Below the pieces are notes generated by a model. It had not been told where the DNA came from, did not search any database, and saw nothing but the letters and a program-made list of their open reading frames with translations. 64,000 nucleotides of DNA from an uncultured delta proteobacterium (GTDB lineage Bacteria; Myxococcota; Myxococcia; Myxococcales; Anaeromyxobacteraceae), in the NCBI GenBank assembly GCA_963766715.1, contig CAVYBH010000008.1:288001-352000 (forward strand). Direction: 5' to 3'. How positions within the stretch are numbered: position 1 is the stretch's first letter; every line of letters begins with the position of its first letter. Positions 19,419 through 34,065 of this stretch are shown piece after piece. Position numbers and translations under genes: made by a program.

Positions 19419-20451
19419 TTCGCGCTGGCAACGGGGACCGGCTTGCCCTGGACCGTGAGCTCCGAGACGGTCTTCTCGAGCATCTTCACGACCGCGACGG
19501 GAAGAGGCGCGTACTCCAGGGGAGCGGCGGTCGCCTGGCCGTCGTGGATCGCCCACCAGAGGAACTTCACGACCTCGTCCCCCTTGGCCTTGTCCTTCGC
19601 GTCCCTGTGGACGAGCAGGTAGGTGAAGGAGGCGATGGGCCAGGCGTCCTTGCCGGACGCGTTGGTCACCGAGACCTTGTAGTCGGCGGGGATGGTGACG
19701 CCGGCGGCGGCGGCCGAGGTGGCGGCGATCGACGGGGCCACGAAGTTGCCGTCCTTGTTCTGGAGGAGCGCCGTGGGGAGCTTGTTCTGGTTCGCGTAGG
19801 CGAGCTCGACGTAGCCGATGGAGCCGGGGGTCTGCTTGACGAGGCCGGTCACGCCCTCGTTGCCCTTGCCGCCGAGGCCCACGGGCCAGGAGACGCTCTT
19901 GCCGGTGCCGGCCTTCTCCTTCCACTCGGGGGAGACCTTCGACAGGTAGTCGGTGAAGACGTAGGTCGTGCCCGATCCGTCGGAGCGGCGGACCACGGCG
20001 ATGGCCTGCGTCGGGGAGGCTCGTTCCAGGGTTCACGGCGGCGATCCTGGGGTCGTTCCACTTCGTGATCTTGCCGAGGAAGATGTCGGCGAGGACGGCC
20101 GGGCGTGAGGCGCAGGCCCTGGACCGGGGCGTTGTAGGTGACGACCACCGCGCCGAGGACCGTGGGGATGTGCACGGCGTCCGGGGCCTTGGCCTGCTCG
20201 TCCGCGCTCATCGGCGCGTCGGTGGCGCCGAAGTCCACGGTCCCGGCGGTGAACTGCTGGATCCCGCCGCCCGAGCCGATCGACTGGTAGTTGAAGCGGA
20301 TGTCGGGGTGGAGCTTGTTGTAGTCCGAGAACCACTTCGAGTAGAGCGGGTTGGGGAAGGTGGCGCCGGCGCCGGTGATGAGGATCGGGGCGGCGGAGGC
20401 GGTGGCGGCGAAGCCCAGCGTGAGCAGGGCGGCCAGGACGAGCTTCTTCAT
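19415..20451 (-). CDS. pstS: Phosphate-binding protein PstS (frameshifts near 20100 and 20020)
   Basis: Signal peptide, [42 protein letters not shown]. Confidence 0.93.
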
Positions 20452-20520
20452 CGGGAATCTCCAGGTGGCTTCGATCGATTGGGCCGTCGTTTCGTTCGCC
20501 GGGAGGTGTAACGGGCGCGC

Positions 20521-20547
20521 GTGACGGGACGGTGACGGCGCCGTGAA
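20521..20547 (-). promoter_or_regulatory. Pho box upstream of pstS
   Basis: Plus-strand GTGAC 20521, GTGAC 20532 and GTGAA 20543 (GTCAC/TTCAC on the coding strand), exact 11-bp period. Confidence 0.7.
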
Positions 20548-20596
20548 GACTCGACGGCGCCAATCGATCGCTTTTCCTGAGTTTGATGCTATACGG

Positions 20597-21752
20597 TTAA
20601 GCTTCGATGGGCGTCGTCGCCCGGGGCAGGCGCACGTGGAAGCGCGTCCCGCCCTCGCCGGTGTCGACGCCGATGTCGCCCGACTGCATCTGCACGAGGT
20701 GCTTCACGATGGCGAGCCCGAGCCCGGTGCCGCCCGAGTCGCGCGCCCTGCCCGGATCCACGCGGTAGAAGCGCTCGAAGAGCCTGGGCAGGTGGTGTCG
20801 CTCGATCCCGGGCCCGGTGTCGGCCACGTCGACCTCGACGCGGTCGTCGGCGAACCTCGCCGACACGGTGGCTCGGCCCCCGCTCGGGCGTGTACTTCAC
20901 CGCGTTGTCGAGCAGGTTCACGAGCACCTGCTCGAGCGCCCGGGCGTCGGCCATCACCGCCGCGCCCTCCGGGATCTCGACGCGGAGCTCGATGCGCTTG
21001 CGGCGGGCCGGCTCGGCGCAGACCTCCATCGCGCGCCGCGCCGTGGCCTCCACCGAGACCGGCTCGAGCTTCACCGGCCACTGCCGCGACTCGATGCGGG
21101 AGAGGTCGAGCAGGTCGTTCGTGAGGCGGGCCAGCCGCTCGGCGTTCCGGGCGATCATCTCCACGAACAGGCGCGCCTGGGCCGGGTCGTCCATCGCGCC
21201 GGAGAGCAGGGTCTCCGCCGCGCCCGCGATGGCGGAGACCGGCGTGCGCAGCTCGTGGCTCGCGTTGGAGACGAAGTCGCGCCGGGTGGACTCGGCGAGC
21301 CGCGCGTCGGTCACGTCGCGCAGCAGCAGCAGCACCTCGCCGCGGAGCAGCGGCATCAGGTGGCAGACCCAGGTCCGCGGGCCGAGCTGGATCTCGAGCC
21401 GCTTGGGCGAGCCCTCGAGCGCGCGCCGGGTGGCCTCGGCCAGCTCGGCGCTCCGGGTGATCTCGAGCACGGAGAGCCCGATGGCGCGCCCCCCGGGCGC
21501 CATCCCGTCGAGGACCACGTTCGAGGCCCGGACCTTGCCGTCCGTGGCGACCAGGCCGGCCGCGTCGGGCATGGCGGCGAGCAGCTCGCGCTCGGGCTGG
21601 GCGCGCTCCCGGGCCCGGAAGTGCTCCTCCCGCTGGGAGAGCAGCACGGCCAGCCAATCCACGGCAGGTGAAAGGTCGGCGCGGGCGCCGCCGGCGAGCT
21701 CCTTCTCGAGTGCCCGGATGGCCGCCTGGACCGGGTCGCCGAAGACGGACAC
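20597..21752 (-). CDS. phoR: Phosphate regulon sensor histidine kinase (frameshift near 20882)
   Basis: PAS-like region, RRDFVSNASHELRTP, NLLDNAVKYT, DTGPGI, FERFYRVD, GGTGLGLAIVKH; lies between pstS and phoB. Confidence 0.9.
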
Positions 21753-21755
21753 GGT

Positions 21756-22448
21756 TCAGGCCCCGTCGGCCGGGTCGAGCAGCCGGTAGCCCACGCCCCG
21801 CACGGTCTCGAGCAGGTCGCGGGCCGCGCCCAGCTTCTCGCGGAGCCGCTTCACGTGGGTGTCGACGGTTCGCGTCTCGAGCTCGCTCGACATCTCCCAC
21901 ACGTCGGAGAGGAGCCGCTCCCGCGACTGGACCCGGCCGGCCCGCGTGACCAGGGTCGTGAGCAGCTTGAACTCGAGGGGCGTGAGGTCGAGCAGCTCGC
22001 CCAGGACCCAGGCCCGGTGGGCGTCGATGTCGATGCGGATGCCGCCCACCTCGGTGACCGGCTTGTCGCTCCCCTGCTTGCCGGCGCGCCGCAGCACCGC
22101 CTTCACCCGGAGCAAGAGCTCACGGACGCTGAAGGGCTTCACCACGTAGTCGTCGGCGCCCAGCTCGAACCCCACCACGCGATCGAGCTCCTCGCCCTTG
22201 GCGGTGAGGACGATGACCGGCACCGCGCGGGTGCGGGGGTCGCTCTTCAGCTGGCGGCAGACCTCGGTCCCGCTCATGTCCGGGAGCATGAGGTCGAGGA
22301 GGACCAGGTCCGGCGGCCGGCGCCGGGCGGCGGTGAGCGCCTCCTCCCCGGCATAGGCGAGGGTGGTCTCGAAACCACCCTGGCGGAGGTTGAAGTCCAG
22401 CAGGCTGACGAGGTCTCGCTCGTCGTCCACCACGAGAACGTTGGGCAC
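21756..22448 (-). CDS. phoB: OmpR/PhoB-family response regulator
   Basis: Receiver domain (VVDDE, DLMLP, GADDYVVKPF) plus winged helix (RTVDTHVKRLREKL, ETVRGVGY); context next to pst. Confidence 0.9.
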   Translation of the reverse strand: MPNVLVVDDERDLVSLLDFNLRQGGFETTLAYAGEEALTAARRRPPDLVLLDLMLPDMSGTEVCRQLKSDPRTRAVPVIVLTAKGEELDRVVGFELGADDYVVKPFSVRELLLRVKAVLRRAGKQGSDKPVTEVGGIRIDIDAHRAWVLGELLDLTPLEFKLLTTLVTRAGRVQSRERLLSDVWEMSSELETRTVDTHVKRLREKLGAARDLLETVRGVGYRLLDPADGA

Positions 22449-22472
22449 GGCTTCCTCTTAACTCCTGCGCCT

Positions 22473-22510
22473 GTGACGGGCCCGTGACGCCTGGGGCAAC
22501 CTCGGGTGAC
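22473..22510 (-). promoter_or_regulatory. Pho-box array upstream of phoB (autoregulation)
   Basis: GTGAC at 22473, 22484 and 22506, plus degenerate GGCAAC at 22495: 11-bp phasing. Confidence 0.65.
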
Positions 22511-22587
22511 TTCCGTGTCGGGAAATGTAACCTCCCGGGGCGGCGCCGGGTCGACCTCTCCGGGGCGTTTGGCGCTAGCATGGGCGA

Positions 22588-23037
22588 ATGGCCGGCCTTC
22601 TCGCCCTTTCGCTCGCGAACCTGATCGCGCTGGCCGCGCCGGTCGCGCCGGCCACGCACCCCGCCTGGGGCGATCGGCTCCGTCCGGGTGCACGGTTCCC
22701 GATCGAGGGGATCGCCTTCGAGGGGCGAGGCGGCCCGCTCTCCCGGGGCGACGGCCTGTCCGACCTGGCCGCGGCGCTCCGCGAGGCGCCCTGGGTCCGC
22801 GTCCGGCTGGAGGGGTTCGTCGACGCCTCCGACGACGCCCCGGGCGACGAGCGGCTCGCGCGCGCCATGGCCCGCGAGGCGGCCGAGCGGCTCGTCTCGC
22901 TCGGCGTGAGGGCGGACCGGGTGGCCTGGACCGGGCGCGGCGGCGACGCCCCGCTCCTCCCGAATTTCACCGCGCGTGCGCGATCGGCGAATCGCCGCGT
23001 GGAGGTGGTGGTGACGAACCCGTCGCCGGGAACTTGA
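22588..23037 (+). CDS. OmpA C-terminal (peptidoglycan-binding) domain protein
   Basis: Signal-like N-terminus; VRLEGFVD...LVSLGV.ADRV..GRGG..P...N....R..NRRVEV. Confidence 0.8.
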   Translation: MAGLLALSLANLIALAAPVAPATHPAWGDRLRPGARFPIEGIAFEGRGGPLSRGDGLSDLAAALREAPWVRVRLEGFVDASDDAPGDERLARAMAREAAERLVSLGVRADRVAWTGRGGDAPLLPNFTARARSANRRVEVVVTNPSPGT

Positions 23038-23090
23038 CGCGGGCGGCGGCGAACGGTGTGCTGGCGGGCCTCGCGAGGCGAGGCAGGAGG

Positions 23091-24022
23091 ATGTCCACAC
23101 GGAACGGGAGCACCACGACGAGGTCCCCGGGGCGCAGCGCCCGGAGGGGGCGCGCGACCTCGGACGCGGGCTGAAGGACTGGTTCCACGGGTTCACGCCC
23201 GCGGGGGCCACGGCCATCGCCGTGACGCTGGTCCTCTCGGTCGCCGCGGCGGACCTCTACACCGGCCCGGGCGTCGACGTGACCCTCCTCTACCTGGGGC
23301 CCATCGGCTTCGGCACCTTCTTCGCCGGGCTGGGCGCGGGAGCGGGACTGGCGGTGCTCGCCGCGGCCTGCTCCGTGGAGACCTCCCGGCTCTCCGGCGA
23401 GGCCATCGCCCCGGCCGTGGTGGCCTGGAACGCCGCGCAGCAGCTCGGCGTCTTCCTGCTCCTCGCCGGCGTCCTCGACGCGTTCAAGAAGCGGCTGCTC
23501 CACGAGCAGCAGGCCGCGCGGACCGACTCGCTCACCGCGCTCGCCAACCGGCGCGCCTTCGTGGAGGCCGCCTGGGTCGAGCTGGAGCGGGCCCGGCGCC
23601 ACGGCCGGCCGCTCTCGCTCCTCTACATCGACTGCGACGACTTCAAGGCGGTCAACGACCGGCTCGGCCACGTGGGCGGCGACGCCGTGCTGGCCGCCGT
23701 GGGCGGGACGCTGCGCGAGGCGGTGCGCGGCCACGACACGGTCGCGCGCCTGGGCGGGGACGAGTTCGGGATCCTCCTCCCGGAGATCGACGGCCCCGGC
23801 GCCGTGGCGCTCGCCGAGCGGCTCCGCGACCAGCTGCGGGAGACCCTCTCCGGCCGCTGGGACCGGGTCACCTTCAGCATCGGCGTGGCCACCTTCGCCT
23901 CCCCGCCGGCCTCGGTGGACGAGATGATCCTCCGCGCCGACGAGCTCATGTACGAGGCCAAGCGGTCCGGCAAGGACGGCTGGCGCGCCGAGACCTGGGG
24001 CGCGACGGAGACCGCCGCTTGA
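23091..24022 (+). CDS. Membrane-bound GGDEF diguanylate cyclase (start uncertain; probable 5' frameshift)
   Basis: TM helices, then TDSLTALANRR, IDCDDFKAVNDRLGH and ARLGGDEF. Confidence 0.88.
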
Positions 24023-25147
24023 GGCTCGTCGCCACCTGCGCGAGCGGGACCGAGGGCGCGGTCCGCAAGGAGCTGGCCCGGCTGGGCATGCGCCACGCCA
24101 AGGGCGCGCGCGGGGCCGTGTCCTTCGAGGGGAGCATCGACGACGGGATGCGGGCCTGCCTCTGGTCGCGGACCGCCATGCGGATCCTGGCCCCGCTCGC
24201 CAGCTTCCCCGCCCCCGACGCGGCCGCCCTCTACGAGGGGGTCCGCACCGTCGACTGGTCGGAGTGGCTGACCGTGAAGACCACGCTCGCGGTGGACGCC
24301 ACCGGCACGGCGCCCGGGCTGCACCACGCGGGCTTCGTCGCGCTGAAGGTGAAGGACGGGGTGGTCGACGACCTGCGCGACCGGCTGGGCGGCCGGCCCG
24401 ACGTGGACACCCACGACCCCGACGTCCGCATCGTGGTCCACCTGTCCCGGGGACAGGCCGAGCTGTCGCTCGACCTCTCCGGCGCCCCCCTCTACCGGCG
24501 CGGCTACCGGACCTCGATCGAGGAGGCCCCGCTGAAGGAGACGCTGGCCGCCTCGATCCTGGCGCTCGGCGGCGTCGACCACGACCTCCCGTTCCTGGAT
24601 CCGCTCTGCGGCTCGGGGACCCTCGCCATCGAGCACGCCATGGCCGCCCGCCGGATCGCGCCCGGGCTCCGGCGCGCCTTCGGCTTCCAGCGCTGGCCGC
24701 GCTACCGGGGCGAGTGGCAGTCCGCCTGGGACCGGCTGAAGGAGGAGGCGCGCGCCGCGGCCCTTCCCGCGGCCCCGGCGCCCATCCGGGCGAGCGACAT
24801 CTCGAAGGACGCGCTCGAGGCCGCGAGGCGCAACGCGCGCGCCGCCGGCGTGGACGCGGACGTGGTGATCGAGCAGGTCGAGGCGCGAACCATCCAGCCC
24901 TTCGGCGAGCAGCGGCACGATCTGCACCAACCCGCCCTACGGGGAGCGGATCGGCGGCCAGCCGCTGCAGCTGGCCGGCTTCTACCGCGGGCTCGGCGAG
25001 GCGTTCCGCAGGTTCCACGGGTGGAGCGTGGTCGTGCTCTCCGGCAACCCGCTGCTCGAGCGGAACGTCGGGCTCCGGCCCGAATGGACCCACTCGCTCT
25101 GGAACGGCCCACTCGAGGTGAAGCTCCTGCGGTTCCTCGTCCCCTGA
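24019..25147 (+). CDS. THUMP-domain RNA methyltransferase, RlmL-like (frameshift near 24915)
   Basis: SLDLSGAPLYRRGYR, APLKETLAA, DPLCGSGT, then TNPPYGERI and LWNGPLEV after the shift. Confidence 0.88.
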
Positions 25148-25262
25148 GGGTCCCCGCCCCTCATCTTTCCCGGTCGCGACAGCGGACCCTCGATTAGGAT
25201 ATCCGGGCTTTTTGGCCCACCCGCACGGGTCGTCCCGGCGGGATCGAGAAAGAAGGAACCCC

Positions 25263-25886
25263 ATGAAGTCGATCCTCCGCGCCTGCGCGTCCACGGTCGC
25301 GCTCCTCGTCCTCTCCTCCTGCGCCACCACGAACCTGGTCCAGACCTGGCGCGACCCGAACTACCAGGCCACCCCGGTGAAGCGGATCTTCATCGTCGGG
25401 ATCATGCCCAACGACACCTACCGCGTGTCGTTCGAGAACGCGCTGGCCCAGTCGCTGCAGTCGAAGGGCTTCCAGGCCGCCACGGCGTCCAGCGTCTTCC
25501 CGCCCGGGCAGCTCGACAAGGAGAAGGTCCAGCAGTACGTGAGCAGCAACCAGGTCGACCTGGTGATCGTGCAGCGGCTCGCCAAGAAGACCACCGCCGA
25601 GTACGTGCCCCCCACCGTCTCCTACGTCCCGCCCGCGCCCTACTACGGCGGCTGGTACGGCGCCTACGGGTACGGCTACGGCGCGGTCTACTCCCCCGGC
25701 TACATCGACGAGCAGACCACCGTGATGGCCGAGACCAACGTCTACTCGACGAAGACCCAGCCCGAGCTGCTGGTCTGGAGCGGCAACTCCGACACCTTCA
25801 ACGTCCAGGACGCCCAGGGCGCGGCCTCGTCCCTCTCCGCCGCGCTGGTCGGGGACCTCATCAAGGCCGGGATCCTGGTCAAGTAG
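25263..25886 (+). CDS. Lipoprotein of unknown function (DUF4136-like)
   Basis: Lipobox LSS-C; Tyr/Gly-rich YYGGWYGAYGYGY segment; LLVWSG..T near the C-terminus. Confidence 0.75.
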   Translation: MKSILRACASTVALLVLSSCATTNLVQTWRDPNYQATPVKRIFIVGIMPNDTYRVSFENALAQSLQSKGFQAATASSVFPPGQLDKEKVQQYVSSNQVDLVIVQRLAKKTTAEYVPPTVSYVPPAPYYGGWYGAYGYGYGAVYSPGYIDEQTTVMAETNVYSTKTQPELLVWSGNSDTFNVQDAQGAASSLSAALVGDLIKAGILVK

Positions 25887-25888
25887 CG

Positions 25889-26659
25889 ATGCGCCCCACA
25901 TCCTGGGACGTGTCGCCGCGCTCGTGGCTGCGGCCACGGTGTCGCTCGCCTGGCCCATCGACACCTTTGGTTGAGGCGTCTCCGCGCCCGTGGGTCCCAC
26001 GGCAACGGCTCGCAGCCTCTGTGACGCGGACGACTCGGCCCCGGGGAGCCCGGCGGCCGAGCCCCGGCCGTGGCGTGTGGCGGCCGCCTACGGGTGGCTC
26101 TCGTCCTCGCTCCGCTTCGGGGACGTGACGGCCCCGTTCGATCAGCGGAGCGTGGCGGTCTCGGTCTCGCGGAGCCTGGGCCCGCAGTGGACGGTCTCGG
26201 CCGGCGCGGGCGCCGTCGTCTCGGGGAACATCGACGCCGGCGGCGTCTCCTACCGGATGGACCCGGGCTGGCTCGCCCGGCTCGGCGTCTCCTGGCTGCC
26301 GCTCGACGGGAGCGGCCCCTGGCCCTTCCTGGCGCTGTCGGGGAGCCTGGCAGCCTCGGGGGTGCAGACCACCGGCCCGGACGGCGTCCAGGCGCCGCTC
26401 ACCTCGCTCGACGCGGGGCTGTCGGTGAGCGCCGGCAAGTCGATCGCCGGCATCGTGGCGCCCTACGTCGGGGCCAAGGTCTTCGGCGGCCCGGTCTTCT
26501 GGCAGCTCGCCGGCGCCTCCACCACCGGCACCGACGTGAGCCACTGGCAGGTGGCCTTCGGCCTGGCCGCGAACCTGCCGTTCGGCATCGACCTGCTCGC
26601 GGAGTGGGCGCCCTTCGGCGCCCAGTCCGCGGTCGTGCAGGCCGGCTGGACCTTGCTAG
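25889..26659 (+). CDS. Predicted outer-membrane beta-barrel protein with in-frame UGA at 25972-25974 (candidate selenoprotein)
   Basis: Frame HILGRVAALVAAATVSLAWPIDTFG-[TGA]-GVSAPVGPTATARSLCDADD...; amphipathic strands follow. ATG 25889 joins this frame with one added C in the CCCC run, and removing one base near 26655 gives the barrel-type ending AGWTF*. Confidence 0.62.
25972..26019 (+). promoter_or_regulatory. Candidate bacterial SECIS element
   Basis: Upper stem CCGTGG/CCACGG (25988-26002) capping GGTC at UGA positions +22..+25; extra pairings CCG/CGG and GAGGC/GCCTC. Confidence 0.65.
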
Positions 26660-27963
26660 TTCGCCTTCAGCTTCTCCAGCCGCCCCTCGAGCCGCTTCAC
26701 GAGGCGCGGGTTCTGCTGCGCCGGCGGAAGCGTCGAGGCGAAGGCGATGGCGTCCCCGAGGGCCTTCCGGGCCCCGGCGACGTCGCCCTTCGCCTCGAGG
26801 ATGGTGGCCCGCTGGGCGAGGACGCGGACCTTGCGCGGCCCGTAGGCGAGCGGCAGGGCTCGCTCCGACGCGGCGAGCGCCTCGTCCGGCTTCTTCAGCT
26901 CGAGGTAGAGCAGCGCCAGCCGGTAGGGCGGGTTGTAGTCCTGCGGCGCGGCCTTCTCCGACGCGAGGAGGAGCGGGACCGCGCGCGCCGGGTCGTGGAG
27001 CTCGAGGGCGGCGCCCACGATCCAGGAGTCGAGCATGGTGCGGGCCTCGGGGGTCTTGCCGGCGTCGCGCTCGGCGACGAGGAAGCTCCACCACTCCTCG
27101 GCGCGGGCCTTCGCCCCCTTCTCGTCGCCGGCCTTGCGGCGGGCCGTGACGAGCTGCTCGTAGATGCCGGCCCGGTCGTCGGCCAGCACGCCCGGGAGCT
27201 TCACGGCCTCGGCCGCGAGCGGCTCGAGCCTCGCCGCGGCGCCCTTCGCCCAGGGCTCGTCCGAGTCGTTGGCGCAGGTGAGCCCCATCGCGACGACGTT
27301 CGCGAACGACTGGCCGCGGGCCATGCCGGGCGCCTCCGTGGCGGCCACCTCGGCGCAGCGCTCCGGACGCCCGGTGGTCTGCAGCCCGGACACGAGCGAC
27401 TCGAGCGTGCGGGCCCGGCGAGGCCAGCCCGGACCGCCCTTCGCGAGCGCCTTCTCCCAGAGCGCGACGGCCTCCGCCGTCCGCCCCGCGCCGCTCTCGC
27501 GGTCGGCCTGGGCCAGGAGCGCGTCGGGGCCTTCGCCCTCCCCGCCCTTCACGGCGCGCTCCCCGTCGGCAAGCAGCGTGGACAGGTCCGCGGCCGTGGC
27601 CGTGCCCAGCCACCGCAGCACCGGCTTCTCGGTGACGGGGTCGATGACGAGGAACGTCGGCCAGACCTCGATGGGGAACTTCTCGAGGAACCCGGCGTTG
27701 CCTTCCTTCTCGGTGTCGATCTCGAGCCAGACGAACCGCCCGGCCATCTTCACGAGCGCCGGGTCACGCAGGACCGTGGCGCGCATGAAGTTGCACGTCT
27801 TTCACCAGGGGGCCCAGGCGTCGACGAAGACCGGGACCTTCCGGGCCTTCGCCTCGGCGATGGCCCTCGGCCAGTCGTCGGAGATCCAGCCCGGGCCCTC
27901 GGCCGCGGCGAGCGCCGGGGCGAGGAGGAGGGCGGCTACGAGGAGGGAACGGGACGAGCGCAT
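26656..27963 (-). CDS. Exported thioredoxin-fold plus TPR protein with UxxC (selenocysteine at codon 54, TGA at 27802-27804)
   Basis: ATG 27963: MRSSRSLLVAALLLAPALAAAEGPGWISDDWPRAIAEAKARKVPVFVDAWAPW-[TGA]-KTCNFMR, continuing in frame into ORF 26656..27786 (cis-Pro loop WPTFLVID, TPR-like helices); 435 aa. Confidence 0.88.
27764..27804 (-). promoter_or_regulatory. Candidate SECIS hairpin downstream of the thioredoxin UGA
   Basis: mRNA UCAUGCG (+17..+23) pairs with UGCGUGA (+35..+41, two G-U pairs), enclosing CGCCACGGUCC. Confidence 0.45.
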
Positions 27964-28044
27964 GGGGCGGGAGTCTAGTCTCGCGCCGTCCCGGAGGCCA
28001 ACCGTCCGCGGGGGCTCGCGTCGGCCGGGACGGTGGGCCGGGGT

Positions 28045-29886
28045 TCACCGCCCGAGAACGCCCGCGGCGACGAGCAGCGCCACCAGGATCCCCATCAGGC
28101 TCTCGCCGGCGATGAAGCCGGATGCCACCGGGACCACGGTCTGGTCGGCGAGCGCCGGGCGGCGGCGCTGCAGCCAGGTGGCCACCGCCGAGCCGAGGAA
28201 CATGGCGATGGAGTTGTTGGCGGGGATGACCATGGCGATCCCCAGCCCGGATGGAGAGGGCACCCAGGGGCGCCAGCTCCGGGGCAGGAGCTTCTCGGCG
28301 AGCACGAGCAGCACGCCGAGCGCCGCGCCCACGGCGATGGCGACCCGGGCGGTCGGATGCAGCGAGCCGAAGCCGGAGACGAGGACCTTGGAGACGCCGG
28401 CCCAGACCTGCGACGCCGGAGCGGGGAAGGCCTGCGAGCCCAGCACCGAGGCGTCGGGGACGAGCAGCGCGAAGGCCGGGACGATGGTCGCCGCGCCGGC
28501 CACGACGCCGATGAGCTGGGCCGCCATCTGCTGCCGGGGGCTCGCGCCGAGAAGCCACCCGGTCTTGAAGACGGTGAGCAGGTCGGCCGAGTGGAGGCCG
28601 ACGCCGCCGGTGGCGTTCGCCCCCATGACGTTCGCCTCCATCCGGCCGGGCAGGAGCCCCCCGTAGACGAACTGGGTGAGCGGCCCGAGCGCCTTGGTGG
28701 GCGTGATGTCGGTCTCCCCCGTGACCCGCGCCGCGACCACCGCCATGACGAGCGCGAGCGGGAGGGTGAGCGCGCCCATCCACCACGGGATCCCGAAGAG
28801 GCGCGACATGAGCCAGACCACCACCGGCCCCACCGTGAGGACCCCCATGACGAACCAGGCCCCGGGGATCTCCACCGCGGCGATGGGATCGCCGCCCGTC
28901 CTCTCGCCGCGGCGGAAGAGCGCCGCGATCTCCCGGAAGGATCGGGCCACGCTCTCCCACTGGAACGCGAAGGAGAGGAGCCCGGACGAGACCAGCATCC
29001 CGGCTGCGCCCCAGAGCGACCAGCCCACGATGGCCCGATAGCTCGCCACCGCGACGATGCCCTCGCGGACCAGCCAGGGACCGATGAAGCCGTAGGTGAC
29101 CACCGCGCCCAGGAGCATGGAGGCCGTGGTGCGGATGCCCATGAGCGCACCGCCGCCGAGCATGAGCACGCTCGTCTCCAGCGAGAGCGTCCACCGGGCC
29201 GCCGGCAGCCCCGCGATCGTGAACGGCAGCCCGATGGCGTCGGGCAGGTTCCACGGCATCCATCGGGCCTTCACGTCCTTGAGGAGCGCCACCGCCACGC
29301 CGACGGCGCTCGCGCCGGCCAGCCAGCGGGCCTTGGTCACGCCCTCGCCACTGCGGGCGTGGAGGGCGCGGATGGTCTCGGCCGTGGCGGTCCCGGTGGG
29401 GAACGGCAGCGCCTCGACGTTCACCAGCTGGCGCTTCACCGGGATGGCGATGAAGACCCCGAGCGCGGCCACCGCGGCGAACCAGAGGAAGAGCCACGGC
29501 CCGGGCGGCGCGGCGCCGGTGAGCATCATCAGGGCGCCGAGCGCGGCCAGGTTTCCGCCCCCGGTCATGTACCCGGCGCCGGAGGCCACGGAGGCCATGG
29601 CGTTGTTCTCGAGATCCCCGAACTCGCGGCGGGAGAGCCCGAGGCCCCCCAGCAGCCGGAAGAGGGCCCAGGCCGCGATGCAGGCGGTCAGGGTGACGCC
29701 CAGGCTCCAGCCGGTCTTCAGCACCACGTAGAGGTTGGAGAGCGCCATGACGGCGCCGAGCAGCACGCCGACGCCGATGGCCCGGAAGGTGAGCTGGGGA
29801 ACGCCCGGACGGTAGACCTGGGTGAGCCAGGCCTGCTCCGGATCCTTCCTCTCCCGGGCGGGCTCTCCGCCACCGTCCCGCGCCAC
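28045..29886 (-). CDS. OPT-family oligopeptide transporter
   Basis: QLTFRAI, NLYVVLKTGW, LENN, LPFPTGTATAE, GETDITP, FKTGWLLGASPRQQ, SGFIAGES. Confidence 0.92.
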   Translation of the reverse strand: MARDGGGEPARERKDPEQAWLTQVYRPGVPQLTFRAIGVGVLLGAVMALSNLYVVLKTGWSLGVTLTACIAAWALFRLLGGLGLSRREFGDLENNAMASVASGAGYMTGGGNLAALGALMMLTGAAPPGPWLFLWFAAVAALGVFIAIPVKRQLVNVEALPFPTGTATAETIRALHARSGEGVTKARWLAGASAVGVAVALLKDVKARWMPWNLPDAIGLPFTIAGLPAARWTLSLETSVLMLGGGALMGIRTTASMLLGAVVTYGFIGPWLVREGIVAVASYRAIVGWSLWGAAGMLVSSGLLSFAFQWESVARSFREIAALFRRGERTGGDPIAAVEIPGAWFVMGVLTVGPVVVWLMSRLFGIPWWMGALTLPLALVMAVVAARVTGETDITPTKALGPLTQFVYGGLLPGRMEANVMGANATGGVGLHSADLLTVFKTGWLLGASPRQQMAAQLIGVVAGAATIVPAFALLVPDASVLGSQAFPAPASQVWAGVSKVLVSGFGSLHPTARVAIAVGAALGVLLVLAEKLLPRSWRPWVPSPSGLGIAMVIPANNSIAMFLGSAVATWLQRRRPALADQTVVPVASGFIAGESLMGILVALLVAAGVLGR

Positions 29887-29934
29887 TAGGGCTCCCGTCC
29901 CGCGGACGGATTCCGATCGAACCGCGTCGAACGA

Positions 29935-29980
29935 GGCACCCGGGACGCTCGCATGGTGCGCGAGTCTAGTCCCGGGTGCC
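29935..29980. repeat. Inverted repeat / hairpin between the DPTWP gene and the OPT gene
   Basis: GGCACCCGGGAC (29935-46) and GTCCCGGGTGCC (29969-80) form a perfect 12-bp stem with inner CTCGC/GCGAG. Confidence 0.5.
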
Positions 29981-30018
29981 CGGGGGAGCCACCTCGTGGC
30001 GAGGGGGTGAGTGCGCGG

Positions 30019-30412
30019 CTACTTCGAGGCGACGGTCGTCCTGGCCGGTGCGGCGCGGGGAGCCGGGGCGGGCGTCGCGGGCTGGGAAGCGGCCATGCCG
30101 GCGGCGGGGGCCCTCATCTGCGGCCAGGTGGGGTCGGAGTAGACGGAGCCGGCTCGCGACGTCGGAGGCGGCCACGCCGACGCCCGGAGACTGGTAGTTG
30201 GCCGCCAGCCAGGGCGCGACGCCGCCCGGGGAGGGACGCTTGCCGGTCTCCGCGGGGCCGTTCAGGCCGATGCCGGGCATGAGGTTGTCGAGGTTCGGCC
30301 AGGTCGGGTCGCTGCACACGGTGCAGTCCTTGGCCGGGTCGGCGGCCAGGGCAGGGGCGGAGAAGGCGGCGAGGACTGCGGCGAGGGCGATGCGGCGGTT
30401 CCAGTGGTTCAC
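30019..30412 (-). CDS. Small secreted protein with CxxC and two SDPTWP repeats (frameshift near 30150)
   Basis: AAAGGAG RBS; signal peptide ending ALA-A; DCTVCSDPTWP; corrected frame GSVYSDPTWPQMRAPAAG...TVASK*. Confidence 0.65.
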
Positions 30413-30430
30413 GGTGACTCCCTTTGGTTG

Positions 30431-30476
30431 AAGGTGACAGTGTCAACATAGAGATCGATGTGGACGGTGTCAACTT
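30431..30476. promoter_or_regulatory. Two tandem palindromic operators, probably bound by the adjacent TetR
   Basis: AAGGTGACAGTGTCAACAT and ATGTGGACGGTGTCAACTT (core TGACA-G-TGTCA) in an AT-richer divergent intergenic region. Confidence 0.7.
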
Positions 30477-30494
30477 CATTCTGCATGGGCTAGG

Positions 30495-31181
30495 ATGGCT
30501 CCCGTGAAATCCCCTTCGCGAACGGGCTCCCGGGCCTCCCGCCCGCCCCGGCGCGCGGTGGCCAAGCGGGAGGGGACCTTCCACCACGGCGACCTGGAAT
30601 GGGCGCTGCTCGAGGCCGCCAGCCAGCTCCTCGAGAAGGAGGGGCCGCTCGGCGTCGGGCTCCGCGCCGCGGCCCGGCTGGCCGGCGTCTCCCACAACGC
30701 GCCCTACCGCCACTTCCAGAACCGCGAGTCGATCCTGGCGGCGCTGGCGGCCCGCGGCCTCCGGGAGCTGGCGGAGCGGATGACCGCCGCCGCGAAGGGC
30801 GGACGCGACGCGCGCGAGGCCCTCACCGCCATCGCCGAGACCTACCTGAGCCTGGCCGCCGAGCGCCCTTCCCTGTTCCGGCTCATGTTCGGGCCGGAGG
30901 TGGCCGACAAGACCCGCCACCCCGAGGTCCGGGAGGCGGGGCTCGGCGCCTACCAGATCCTCATCGACACCATCGCCGAGGGGCAGCGCACCGGCGTGGT
31001 GCGGTCCGGCGACCCCGCCGAGATCGCGCTCGGGCACTGGGCCGCGGTCCACGGGGCGGCGTCCCTCCTGGTGGACGGCGTGCTGGCGGAGCGGGCGCGC
31101 GACCTGGGCGGGCCGTCGGGCCTGGCCCGCATGGTCGCCGAGCAGGTCCGGCTGGGCACCGAGCCGCGCCGCGGCGGGTGA
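30495..31181 (+). CDS. TetR/AcrR regulator with WHG-type C-terminal domain
   Basis: FHHGDL, LRAAARLAGVSHNAPYRHF, WAAVHG; the true start may be GTG 30504. Confidence 0.92.
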   Translation: MAPVKSPSRTGSRASRPPRRAVAKREGTFHHGDLEWALLEAASQLLEKEGPLGVGLRAAARLAGVSHNAPYRHFQNRESILAALAARGLRELAERMTAAAKGGRDAREALTAIAETYLSLAAERPSLFRLMFGPEVADKTRHPEVREAGLGAYQILIDTIAEGQRTGVVRSGDPAEIALGHWAAVHGAASLLVDGVLAERARDLGGPSGLARMVAEQVRLGTEPRRGG

Positions 31182-31313
31182 CGTCCCCTCCCTCCTCCGA
31201 GCGATTCCTGGACGCGCTGCGCAATGCGGCCGGCCAGCGCAGGCGTTAACGTCGCCTGGCCGCCCACCCGCCCGGGCGGCCAGCGACGAGAACCCAACGC
31301 AGTGGAGGTCGCC

Positions 31314-32505
31314 ATGGCGCTCCGGATCCTTTCCGCCGCACTGCTTTTCCTCTCCGTCACGGCCGGACCGGCCCATGCGGCGCCGGTGCCGGGCGTCACC
31401 GACACCGAGATCACGATCGGCATCACCGGACCGCTGTCCGGGCCGGCCGCGGCCTGGGGCACGATCGCGCTCGCCTCCGAGGCCTACGCGGCCCACGTGA
31501 ACCAGCAAGGGGGCGTGCACGGGCGAAAGCTGAAGATCGTCCTCAAGGACGACGGCTACAACCCCGGCCGCGCGGTGGCCAACTTCAACGAGATGAAGGA
31601 CTCGGTGTTCGCGGTGATCGGGACCGTGGGCACGGCCGTGCTGAACGCCAACAAGGACCTGGTGGCGGAGGCCGGTCTCCCGCTCGTCTACCCGCTCGGC
31701 AACGTCCAGGTCTTCGCCAAGCAGCCGAAGGAGAAGGTCCGCACGGTGTTCCAGGTCTACCCGGACTACGCCGACGAGGCGGAGTTCCTGGTCGGGCAGG
31801 CCGCCAAGCTGGAGAACGTGAAGAAGCTGGGCTTCTTCGGGCAGAACGACGACTACGGCAAGCAGGGCCTGGAAGGCGCGAAGCGCGGCCTGGCCAAGAA
31901 CCCGGGCGTCTCGATCGTGGGCGAGGTCTTCTACGAGGTCACCGATCGCGAGCTGGGGACGCAGGCGCTGAAGCTGAAGGACTCGGGCGCCGAGGCCGTG
32001 CTGCTCTACGCCACCCCCACCCACGCCGCCGGGATCGTGAAGGAGATGGCCAAGGTCGGCTACCGCCCGAAGATCTTCGCCTCCTTCACGCTCTACGACC
32101 GCGACACGATGTTCCGGCTGCTCGGCGACCTGTGGGAAGGGGCCTACTACGACTCGGCGCTCGCGCTCCGCGGCGAGCCGGCGGCCGACAGGATCATCGA
32201 CGTGGTCGTGAAGAACGACCCCAAGCTGAAGGGGCGCGAGGGCTTCTGCGTCCAGGGCGGCGCCGACATCCTCGTCCTCGTCGAGGGGCTGAAGCGCGCC
32301 GGCCGCGACCTCACCCGCGAGAAGTTCCTGGCCGCGATGGAGTCCATCAAGGACTACCAGGAGGAAGGGCTCGTGCCGGGGATCACCTTCGGCCCGGGGC
32401 GCCACCACGGCCTGAACGCCGTCCGGCTCATGCGCGCCGGGAAGGCCACCGATCGCCACGCCCAAGCAGATCACTCCCTGGCAGACCTTCGCCCCGCTCT
32501 TCTAG
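31314..32505 (+). CDS. Liv-type ABC transporter substrate-binding protein (frameshift near 32460)
   Basis: GGAGG RBS, signal peptide, PGVTDTEITIG, GGVHGRK, DDGYNP, QNDDYGK. Confidence 0.9.
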
Positions 32506-32515
32506 GGATCCGTCG

Positions 32516-33274
32516 GTGGGGGACCGGCTGCTCGAGGTTCGCGACCTCACGCTGAGGTTCGGAGGCATCACCGCCCTCGGCGGGGTCGACCTCTCGATCG
32601 AGGAGGGAGAGACGCTCGCGGTCATCGGGCCGAACGGCTCGGGGAAGACCTCGCTCTTCAACTGCGTCACCGGCCTCTATCGCCCCACCTCGGGCAGCAT
32701 CGCGTTCCAGGGGGAGAGCCTGCTCGGGCTCTCCCCCGACCGCGTCACCGCGCGCGGCGTGGCGCGCACCTTCCAGAACCTGCGGCTCTTCCTGCACATG
32801 ACGGTGCTCGACAACCTGATGCTGGGGCGCCACCTCCACTTCCGGAAGAACCTGGCCGCGGCGGCCCTGCGGCTGCGCGGCGAGGAGGTCCGCCACCGGG
32901 CCAAGGTGGAGGAGATCATCGAGTTCCTCGACCTGGAGGCCTGGCGCGACTCGCGGGTGGCCGGGTGCGCCTACGGCGTGCAGAAGCGGGTCGAGATCGG
33001 GCGCGCGCTCGCCACCGAGCCGCGGCTGCTGCTCCTCGACGAGCCGGTCTCCGGGCTCACCGCCGAGGAGAAGGAGGAGGTGGCCTACTGGATCCACGAG
33101 ATCCGGGGACGCTTCCACGTGACCGTGCTCCTCGTGGAGCACGACCTGCGCGTGGCCTCCCGCCTCTCCGGACGCATGGTGGTGCTCGACCGCGGGGTGA
33201 AGCTCACCGAGGGGACGCCGGAGGAGGTGCAGCGCCACCCCGGCGTGATCCGCGCCTACCTGGGGGACCAGTGA
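32516..33274 (+). CDS. ABC ATPase, LivG-like
   Basis: [35 protein letters not shown]. Confidence 0.92.
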
Positions 33275-34065
33275 GCGAGACCCCCGCGCCCCCGATCCTG
33301 GCCGTCTCGAGCATCGAGACGCTCTACCACGACCGGATCTACGCGCTCACCGGCGTCTCCCTCGAGCTGCGCGAGCGGGAGATCTTCGCGGTGCTGGGGC
33401 CGAACGGCGCCGGCAAGACCACGCTCCTCCGGACCATCGCCGGCCTCCTGCGCGACCAGCCCAAGAAGGGCACCATCCGGCTCGACGGCCGGCGCATCGA
33501 GCGCCACCAGCCGGAGGAGGTGGCCGACGCCGGGGTGGTCTTCGTCGCCGAGGACCGCGGCCTCTTCCGCGAGCTCACCGTGGCGGAGAACCTCGACCTC
33601 GGCATGTGGGGCAAGCCGCGCCGGCAGGCCCGCGAGGATCTGGAGACGGTTCACGCCCTCTTTCCCCGGCTGCGCGAGCGCCTCCAGCAGCAGGCCGACA
33701 CGCTCTCCGGCGGCGAGCAGCAGATGCTCGCCATCGGGCGCTCGCTCCTGCGCCGGCCCCGGCTGCTCCTCCTCGACGAGCCGTCGCTCGGCCTGACCCC
33801 GGAGATGTCCCGGATCGTCTTCGACGCGCTGGTGCAGATCAGCGAGGCCGGCACCACCATCCTCCTCGTGGAGCAGAACGCCCGGCTGGCGCTGCGCGTG
33901 GCCCACCGCGCCGCCATCCTCGAGACCGGGCGCATCGTCCTCACCGGGACGCCGCAGGAGCTCTCCGAGCACCCCGACGTCCGGGACGTGTACCTGGGCA
34001 TCGGCACCGGGGACGCCACCGAGGGCAAGAGCTTCCGGCTCTACCGGAAGAGGAGGCGCTGGTGA
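33271..34065 (+). CDS. ABC ATPase, LivF-like
   Basis: [36 protein letters not shown]; ends YRKRRRW. Confidence 0.92.

Follow-up and report, generated by a model that had tools for sequence, protein, structure and literature searches.

What do two in-frame TGA codons, one near the start of each of two neighbouring convergent genes, encode in the genome of an uncultured delta proteobacterium of the Anaeromyxobacteraceae, and do the two gene products belong together? The genes lie in a stretch of 64,000 nucleotides (nt) of contig CAVYBH010000008.1 (assembly GCA_963766715.1, positions 288,001 to 352,000 of the forward strand), which we call the window and whose first letter is position 1. One of them encodes a small outer-membrane beta-barrel and the other an exported thioredoxin with a TPR tail; an earlier note, made from the sequence alone, had joined them with an adjacent lipoprotein gene into a cell-envelope module of selenocysteine (Sec) proteins. 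We find that both UGAs very probably encode selenocysteine, judging from comparisons across relatives, and that the main news of the locus is the barrel, an uncatalogued family of small outer-membrane proteins that start with selenocysteine. The features concerned are the following:

25263-25886, plus strand: lipoprotein gene, 207 amino acids (aa), lipobox L-S-S-C20 (assigned by eye), with weak DUF4136 / Sbal_3080-like similarity below the cut-offs
25889-26659, plus strand: gene for the outer-membrane 10-strand beta-barrel selenoprotein, with a signal peptide, the predicted Sec at mature residue 1, and the barrel
25972-25974, plus strand: UGA (Sec) codon of the barrel gene, the first residue past a signal-peptidase site of the A-x-A/G type, preceded here by T-F-G
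25988-26002, plus strand: hairpin of the barrel gene, a selenocysteine insertion sequence (SECIS), with a 6-bp stem and a 3-nt loop, G-U-C, that starts 20 nt past the UGA
26020-26022, plus strand: second conserved Cys of the barrel, mature residue 17 here and residue 11-17 across the family
26656-27963, minus strand: exported thioredoxin (Thioredoxin_7) and TPR gene, 435 aa, active site W-U-K-T-C
27802-27804, minus strand: UGA (Sec) codon of the thioredoxin/TPR gene, in a UxxC motif, the sole in-frame TGA of the gene
27748-27790, minus strand: hairpin 3' of the thioredoxin UGA, a candidate non-canonical SECIS whose apical loop lacks the conserved G

The basic geometry described in the earlier note was recovered: the TAG of the lipoprotein gene lies 2 nt upstream of the barrel ATG at 25889, and the in-frame TGAs of the two convergent genes were found at 25972-25974 and, on the opposite strand, at 27804-27802. 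Their stop codons do overlap on the CTAG at 26656-26659, as had been described, but most relatives have separate stops, and we rejected the shared CTAG as a meaningful feature because it is not conserved among them.

For the barrel, we scanned one genome per species with a pattern consisting of one barrel motif and kept the best 80 of 111 relatives. Because this motif itself defined the scan, its invariance among the loci is uninformative; the N-terminus lies outside the pattern. The codon after the signal peptide, with the tally corrected by hand for L059, L090, L119 and L130, is TGA in 67 of the 80 loci, Cys (TGC or TGT) in 12 and Gly (GGA) in one, and among close relatives the TGA is conserved in 14 of the 15 genomes that have a near-full-length match, so that its presence is not due to chance. 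In the TGA loci, the residue at -1 is Ala or Gly in 66 of 67 and the residue at -3 is Ala in 60 of 67. This is the pattern of signal peptidase I and not a lipobox, and Sec would therefore be residue 1 of the mature protein. A second Cys follows at residue 11-17 in all 79 TGA and Cys loci, which bears out the Sec/Cys pair that had been proposed for the barrel N-terminus. The barrel family thus shows the mark by which bacterial selenoprotein genes are recognized, an in-frame UGA that is conserved and has Cys in its place in homologues. Database entries of the Sec form begin downstream of the TGA, and the expectation that gene callers would shorten the barrel proved correct, with the signal-peptide-Cys-Gly start missing in 72 of 76 database homologues. 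Four loci have an extra Cys at the end of the signal peptide, two residues ahead of Sec, reading A-C-G-U in L059 (4992-5000) and A-C-A-U in L072, L084 and L130.

Could the TGAs instead be true stops, marks of pseudogenes or sequencing errors? The assembly does contain many indels, including some in the barrel gene and in selA. In this assembly the barrel gene loses its frame at either end: 83 nt separate its ATG from its TGA, where five of six relatives have 81 nt and the remaining one (L053) has 78 nt, and its reading frame continues beyond the TAG. Contigs of close strains from two runs have two bases fewer near 25909-25912 and one fewer at 26655, a database protein 97% identical to the barrel ends in ...GWTF, and selA of this genome is likewise fragmented; we therefore regard the three barrel indels as probable assembly errors. 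For the TGAs themselves such an explanation is contradicted by their conservation across phyla, the Cys counterparts, the synonymous covariation of the hairpin and the co-occurrence with selA and selB, and we give it almost no credence.

In the published model of the bacterial SECIS (bSECIS), a loop of 3-9 nt with a G in its first two positions tops a stem of 4-16 bp at 16-37 nt from the UGA (PMC13188914). With its 6-bp stem, its G-U-C loop, a spacer of 19 nt and its covariation, the barrel hairpin fits this model. Over 63 distinct rows, 97.1% of the stem cells are paired, 48 cells are changed on both sides, none of 500 shuffles reaches this degree of pairing and no slid register comes close. 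Where two third codon positions pair with each other, each of the 66 sequences has a Watson-Crick pair (CG 50, GC 13, TA 3), codon +7 is GGT in 64 of 66 compared with 248 of the 1802 remaining Gly codons in the same genes, and none of the Cys-form barrels has a stem of at least 5 bp at this place. Across the genome, a scan for the barrel-type pattern returned eight matches, of which the barrel one alone is in a credible frame; an Rfam search of 24500-29000 returned no match.

The selenocysteine machinery that had been named as a check is present: the genome has tRNA-Sec, selA, selB and selD, the three protein genes each scoring above their curated cut-offs, with selA in pieces and selD containing a TGA of its own. 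An odd tRNA call on contig C11 was discarded, as it bears no resemblance to tRNA-Sec. In selD (L003, G000:C9) we also observed a hairpin whose loop, G-GUC-C, is that of the barrel SECIS, but which lies about 36 nt past the selD UGA. Co-occurrence was sampled in 50 of 66 distant barrel genomes, comprising all 12 with Cys, the one with Gly and 37 of the 53 with TGA, picked for spread: selA was found in 35 of the 37 with TGA and in 2 of the 12 with Cys, and selB is present in the two remaining TGA genomes.

Some observations count against this reading or qualify it. Taken alone, the hairpin of the window barrel is no more stable than its shuffles (z +0.5 to +0.6), so the support for it as a SECIS is the covariation. 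The 12 Cys forms are not independent, as a midpoint-rooted tree of 78 sequences, made without the duplicate L057 and the frameshifted L130, places them all in a single clade (support 0.93) amid Sec forms; since this tree has no outgroup, the direction of the change between Sec and Cys is only suggested. Finally, one barrel (L066, genome G017) has GGA at the Sec position despite intact sel genes. This genome (L066/L018) keeps selA, selB and its Sec-thioredoxin, whose place on the contig is as in G073, as well as a still recognisable barrel hairpin and the second Cys. The database members P0185 and P0165 have Ser at mature residue 1 and P0119 has Cys within a Sec-type sequence context, which suggests further independent losses of Sec. 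Considering these points together with the evidence above, we are nearly certain that SelB reads the barrel UGA as Sec via the short SECIS and that cleavage directly before it would leave a mature N-terminal Sec with a free amine.

The family is large. A profile search gave 502 barrel clusters at 50% identity, ranging from Myxococcota to records titled Krumholzibacteria, Neomarinimicrobiota and Lentisphaeria, and in the ESM Atlas it matched hypothetical-protein clusters only, mostly from Myxococcota. Sec is the majority state and Cys the exception, which is the reverse of the usual picture in selenoprotein families. Pfam and NCBIfam list no family at cut-off for the window barrel, any family they list matches at most 6 of 55 members, and a PDB sequence search matched no solved structure. 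The family is missing from the 119-row selenoprotein family table of 2026 (Table 1, PMC13188914), and we found no such barrel in the portions considered of PMC12013277, PMC13326102, PMC13745706, PMC1794560, PMC1914089 and bioRxiv 2022.07.06.499078. Full-text literature searches found no description of it, although the BSepDB family table could still bear on its novelty. In the portion considered of PMC5877670, ExtI is treated as a porin beside the selenoprotein ExtKL.

Which known outer-membrane proteins does the barrel resemble? Two AlphaFold models, built with 33 and 55 sequences, have mean predicted local distance difference test (pLDDT) values of 90.9 and 90.3 and ten strands by secondary-structure count. 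The best structural matches are a designed 10-strand barrel (Z 17.1), OmpT (Z 14.7-14.9; for 7xw0, Z 14.9 with a root-mean-square deviation of 3.7 over 195 residues) and OpcA (2vdf, Z 14.4, deviation 3.6 over 184 residues). OmpT and OpcA share the 10-strand fold, but at 8-9% identity and without a sequence match, and the Sec/Cys arm of the barrel lies outside these alignments. The GSU2204 family (MtrB/PioB barrel, NF041027) and the TonB-dependent receptors of the FCYXU type (NF049945) share with it a Sec in an exported beta-barrel; unlike these, the present barrel, with about 228 aa and ten strands, lacks a haem motif and has its Sec at mature residue 1 and a distant Cys, and neither model matches any of the 33 or 55 members. 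The COG4313 / PF13557 channels, such as Pput2725 (4rl8), are likewise small outer-membrane barrels in which the signal peptide is followed by an N-terminal segment. They have twelve strands, compared with ten here; PF13557 matched none of the 55 members at E up to 1, and 4rl8 ranks 27th (Z 8.8), below the 10-strand barrels.

The second gene is less of a surprise. Its product has a signal peptide, a PF13899 (Thioredoxin_7) domain at 43.1 bits against a cut-off of 27 and TPR_12 above cut-off, and it is present at E < 1e-40 in 45 of 61 close relatives. At the active site, all 29 Sec-type loci (L022-L050) have TGA, and 13 more distant homologues have TGC or TGT, giving CxxC, to which the UxxC of the thioredoxin domain aligns. 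The claim that both genes are UGA-recoded is thereby upheld by TGA conservation, Cys counterparts and the sel machinery. As to the hairpins placed 3' of each TGA, the one in the thioredoxin gene is more stable than its shuffles (z -3.05) and the one in the barrel gene stands by covariation but not by stability. The thioredoxin hairpin keeps 13.9 of its 16 pairs across 25 distinct Sec forms and 8.5 across the 13 Cys forms, a comparison in which the structure, derived from the window, favours the Sec forms; its apical loop starts without a conserved G, unlike the canonical bSECIS. Bacterial UxxC thioredoxin and thiol:disulfide interchange selenoproteins (PMC13188914, Table 1) share the thioredoxin fold, the attacking Sec in UxxC and Cys counterparts, and the present protein differs from them in its signal peptide and long TPR tail. 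It falls below the cut-offs of the named NCBIfam thioredoxin selenoprotein families (TsoB 33 of 805 bits, Trx7/PDZ 12 of 300, VPGUxxT 13 of 275) and reaches no NCBIfam selenoprotein cut-off. For Anaeromyxobacter dehalogenans, the portion considered of PMC1794560 lists two 'thioredoxin' selenoproteins without specifying which. By its sequence, the thioredoxin/TPR protein is a credible selenoprotein of an ordinary kind, a UxxC version of a CxxC protein of myxobacteria.

Do the three genes form a module? The barrel was found in 16 of the 61 close genomes, with the same result by single-sequence and by profile search. The thioredoxin/TPR gene lies beside it in 13 of these 16, in ten directly and in three across an O-methyltransferase gene; of the remaining three, one locus runs into a contig end and in two the genes are not adjacent. 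The lipoprotein gene is directly upstream of the barrel in 15 of the 16, and lipoprotein matches number 2-6 per genome in both genera. Outside these genera the arrangement dissolves: the 66 distant barrel loci all lack both partners within 5 kb, and the thioredoxin/TPR protein, encoded elsewhere in 27 of 50 distant barrel genomes, has Cys in all nine that were fetched. Barrel loss is visible among the close relatives as well, with the lipoprotein and thioredoxin genes abutting in the genus-mates G005 and G008 and a barrel remnant with an internal deletion in G006. Because thioredoxin/TPR relatives without a barrel exist, because the barrel has been lost in these strains and because none of the 66 distant loci has the adjacency, the three-gene cluster is a local, lineage-specific arrangement of two genera of one family and not the fixed system that had been proposed. 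The lipoprotein is probably a bystander. In the second genus (L063:5660-6420, L064, L065), the O-methyltransferase gene lies between barrel and thioredoxin, and in Minicystis rosea (L081:5816-6454) an O-methyltransferase-family gene follows the barrel.

This leaves the narrower idea of the earlier note, that a periplasmic thioredoxin acts on the barrel, which finds some support in a looser form: the thioredoxin/TPR protein is no fixed partner, but other exported thioredoxins adjoin the barrel in three more clades. By profile search, thioredoxin-fold genes were found in 12 of the 66 distant loci (555 kb), compared with 9 in the entire 4.2-Mb genome studied here, an enrichment that is inflated because the profile was seeded from these same barrel neighbours. 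In ten of the 66, an exported thioredoxin, with lipoprotein-type signals (by eye) and CxxC, is the nearest gene. These ten belong to three separate barrel clades and two subtypes, which with the home clade makes four associations, and the barrel-adjacent thioredoxins are all next to Sec forms and none next to the 12 Cys forms. Since exported thioredoxins flank the barrel in three further clades, a loose redox link between the two is plausible. Weighing against it, along with the inflated enrichment, are the 54 distant loci with no thioredoxin in the fetched flanks, the 30 of 45 thioredoxin/TPR relatives in which no barrel was found (with the TGA verified in 14 of them) and one whole barrel clade in whose ten genomes no thioredoxin/TPR was found. 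It is quite possible, if somewhat less so than the contrary, that these are two real but functionally unrelated selenoproteins, and that a genomic accident in a single lineage put the barrel next to a lipoprotein with many paralogs on one side and a housekeeping thioredoxin/TPR on the other. The barrel and thioredoxin genes are convergent and not co-transcribed, an O-methyltransferase gene intervenes in the second genus, the barrel was cleanly lost in G005 and G008, and the distributions of barrel and partner are very different. What speaks against mere accident is that an exported thioredoxin adjoins the barrel, or stands one gene off, in four separate barrel clades, which is above the expectation from a handful of such genes per genome. 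This alternative concerns the partnership alone and is compatible with either of the other functions considered below. A complex prediction for barrel and thioredoxin/TPR, with the natural Cys pair of G062 as stand-in, scored 0.00 against a mark of 0.32 and is evidence neither way.

How might such a barrel work? We tentatively propose, with slightly less than even confidence, a redox-gated barrel in which a selenenyl-sulfide on a periplasm-anchored, lumen-plugging arm is reset by exported thioredoxins. SelB and the short SECIS would place Sec at the barrel UGA, the signal peptide would be cut directly before it, and the mature barrel would open with a Sec bearing a free amino group. A flexible arm of about 30 residues would carry Sec1 and, 10-16 residues further, the second Cys, which on sequence grounds is the likely selenenyl-sulfide partner of Sec1. 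Entering from the periplasmic side, the arm may fold up inside the barrel and plug its lumen; a selenenyl-sulfide may form reversibly between the two residues, its state being set by an exported thioredoxin, so that periplasmic redox conditions would open or prime the pore. The partner would be the UxxC/TPR protein in the two Anaeromyxobacteraceae genera and a TlpA-like or single-domain thioredoxin lipoprotein in other clades; the link would be loose, and the thioredoxin/TPR protein would have other work. In both models, alignment to four autotransporter chains begins at residue 1-4 and covers their N-terminal part, which we take to be the helix inside their pore, and it therefore hints weakly that the barrel arm sits in the lumen. 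This proposal has to contend with an arm that is modelled at a pLDDT of about 50 over some 30 residues in both models, so that its placement is not established, and with the 123 nearest neighbours of the 66 distant loci, which suggest no substrate. Apart from thioredoxins, no conserved neighbour family was found at the distant loci, with genes called by a rough script.

The conserved residues of the barrel admit two other functions. Beyond the search motif, D147 (54 of 55), R149 (46 of 55), D188 (55 of 55), H191 (53 of 55) and E211 (50 of 55) are conserved, as is Y165, and by strand alternation most of the conserved polar residues appear to point inward, close to the outer mouth. One possibility is a metal hook made up of the free amine, Sec1 and the second Cys, which, aided by the conserved Asp, His and Glu residues of the pore mouth, would bind a soft metal (Cu, Ni, Hg or Zn) for uptake or capture, the thioredoxins merely keeping the site reduced. 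N-terminal hooks of amine plus thiolate exist, for example in nickel superoxide dismutase. Still, no heavy-metal transport or resistance Pfam was found among the 123 nearest neighbours at E 1e-5, and none around the window copy; the metal or selenium handling suggested in the earlier note found no evidence in the neighbourhood, and we consider a metal hook unlikely, though not negligible. The same residues could serve an outer-membrane enzyme, in which Sec1 would be an N-terminal nucleophile working with the conserved Asp and His, in the manner of omptins, on a surface lipid, peptide or peroxide. OmpT is the nearest natural fold, the barrel having the ten strands of an omptin, and the invariant D188 and near-invariant H191 and D147 would lie on the outer side. 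Yet no omptin or other enzyme profile is listed for the 55 members, no solved structure was matched by sequence, and the second Cys favours a reversible Se-S bond over a lone nucleophile. We consider an enzyme improbable; the redox-gated barrel is our preferred reading.

The wider surroundings of the locus can be described briefly. Upstream (window 19849-25147, names by eye) lie genes for pstS/pstC, a PhoR/PhoB-like pair, an OmpA-domain protein, a GGDEF protein and a THUMP methyltransferase, several of them frameshifted in this assembly, in a block common to both genera. Downstream (window 28045-34065, by eye) are an OPT-type oligopeptide transporter, a TetR regulator and a branched-chain amino-acid ABC cluster, to which we saw no link. 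A search of 25000-28200 for promoter and terminator consensus sequences found none. On other contigs (G013:C31 and C32, G012:C7) the locus occurs a second time, identical or in part, and these copies are probably assembly duplicates.

Being absent from the catalogues consulted, the barrel adds a family to the known selenoproteins, and a Sec as the first residue of an integral outer-membrane protein combines a position and a compartment of little precedent. If the proposed gating is true, a selenium thioredoxin would in this lineage work on a pore that itself contains selenium, and a Sec-to-Sec relay would operate at the outer membrane. More speculatively, and we consider it rather doubtful at this breadth, such redox-gated pores may be widespread, with signal-peptide cleavage unmasking an N-terminal Sec on a lumen plug and exported thioredoxins opening and closing the pore. 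Since Minicystis rosea (L081), a cultured organism with a complete genome, carries a TGA-form barrel together with selA, the role of selenium at the outer membrane is directly testable.

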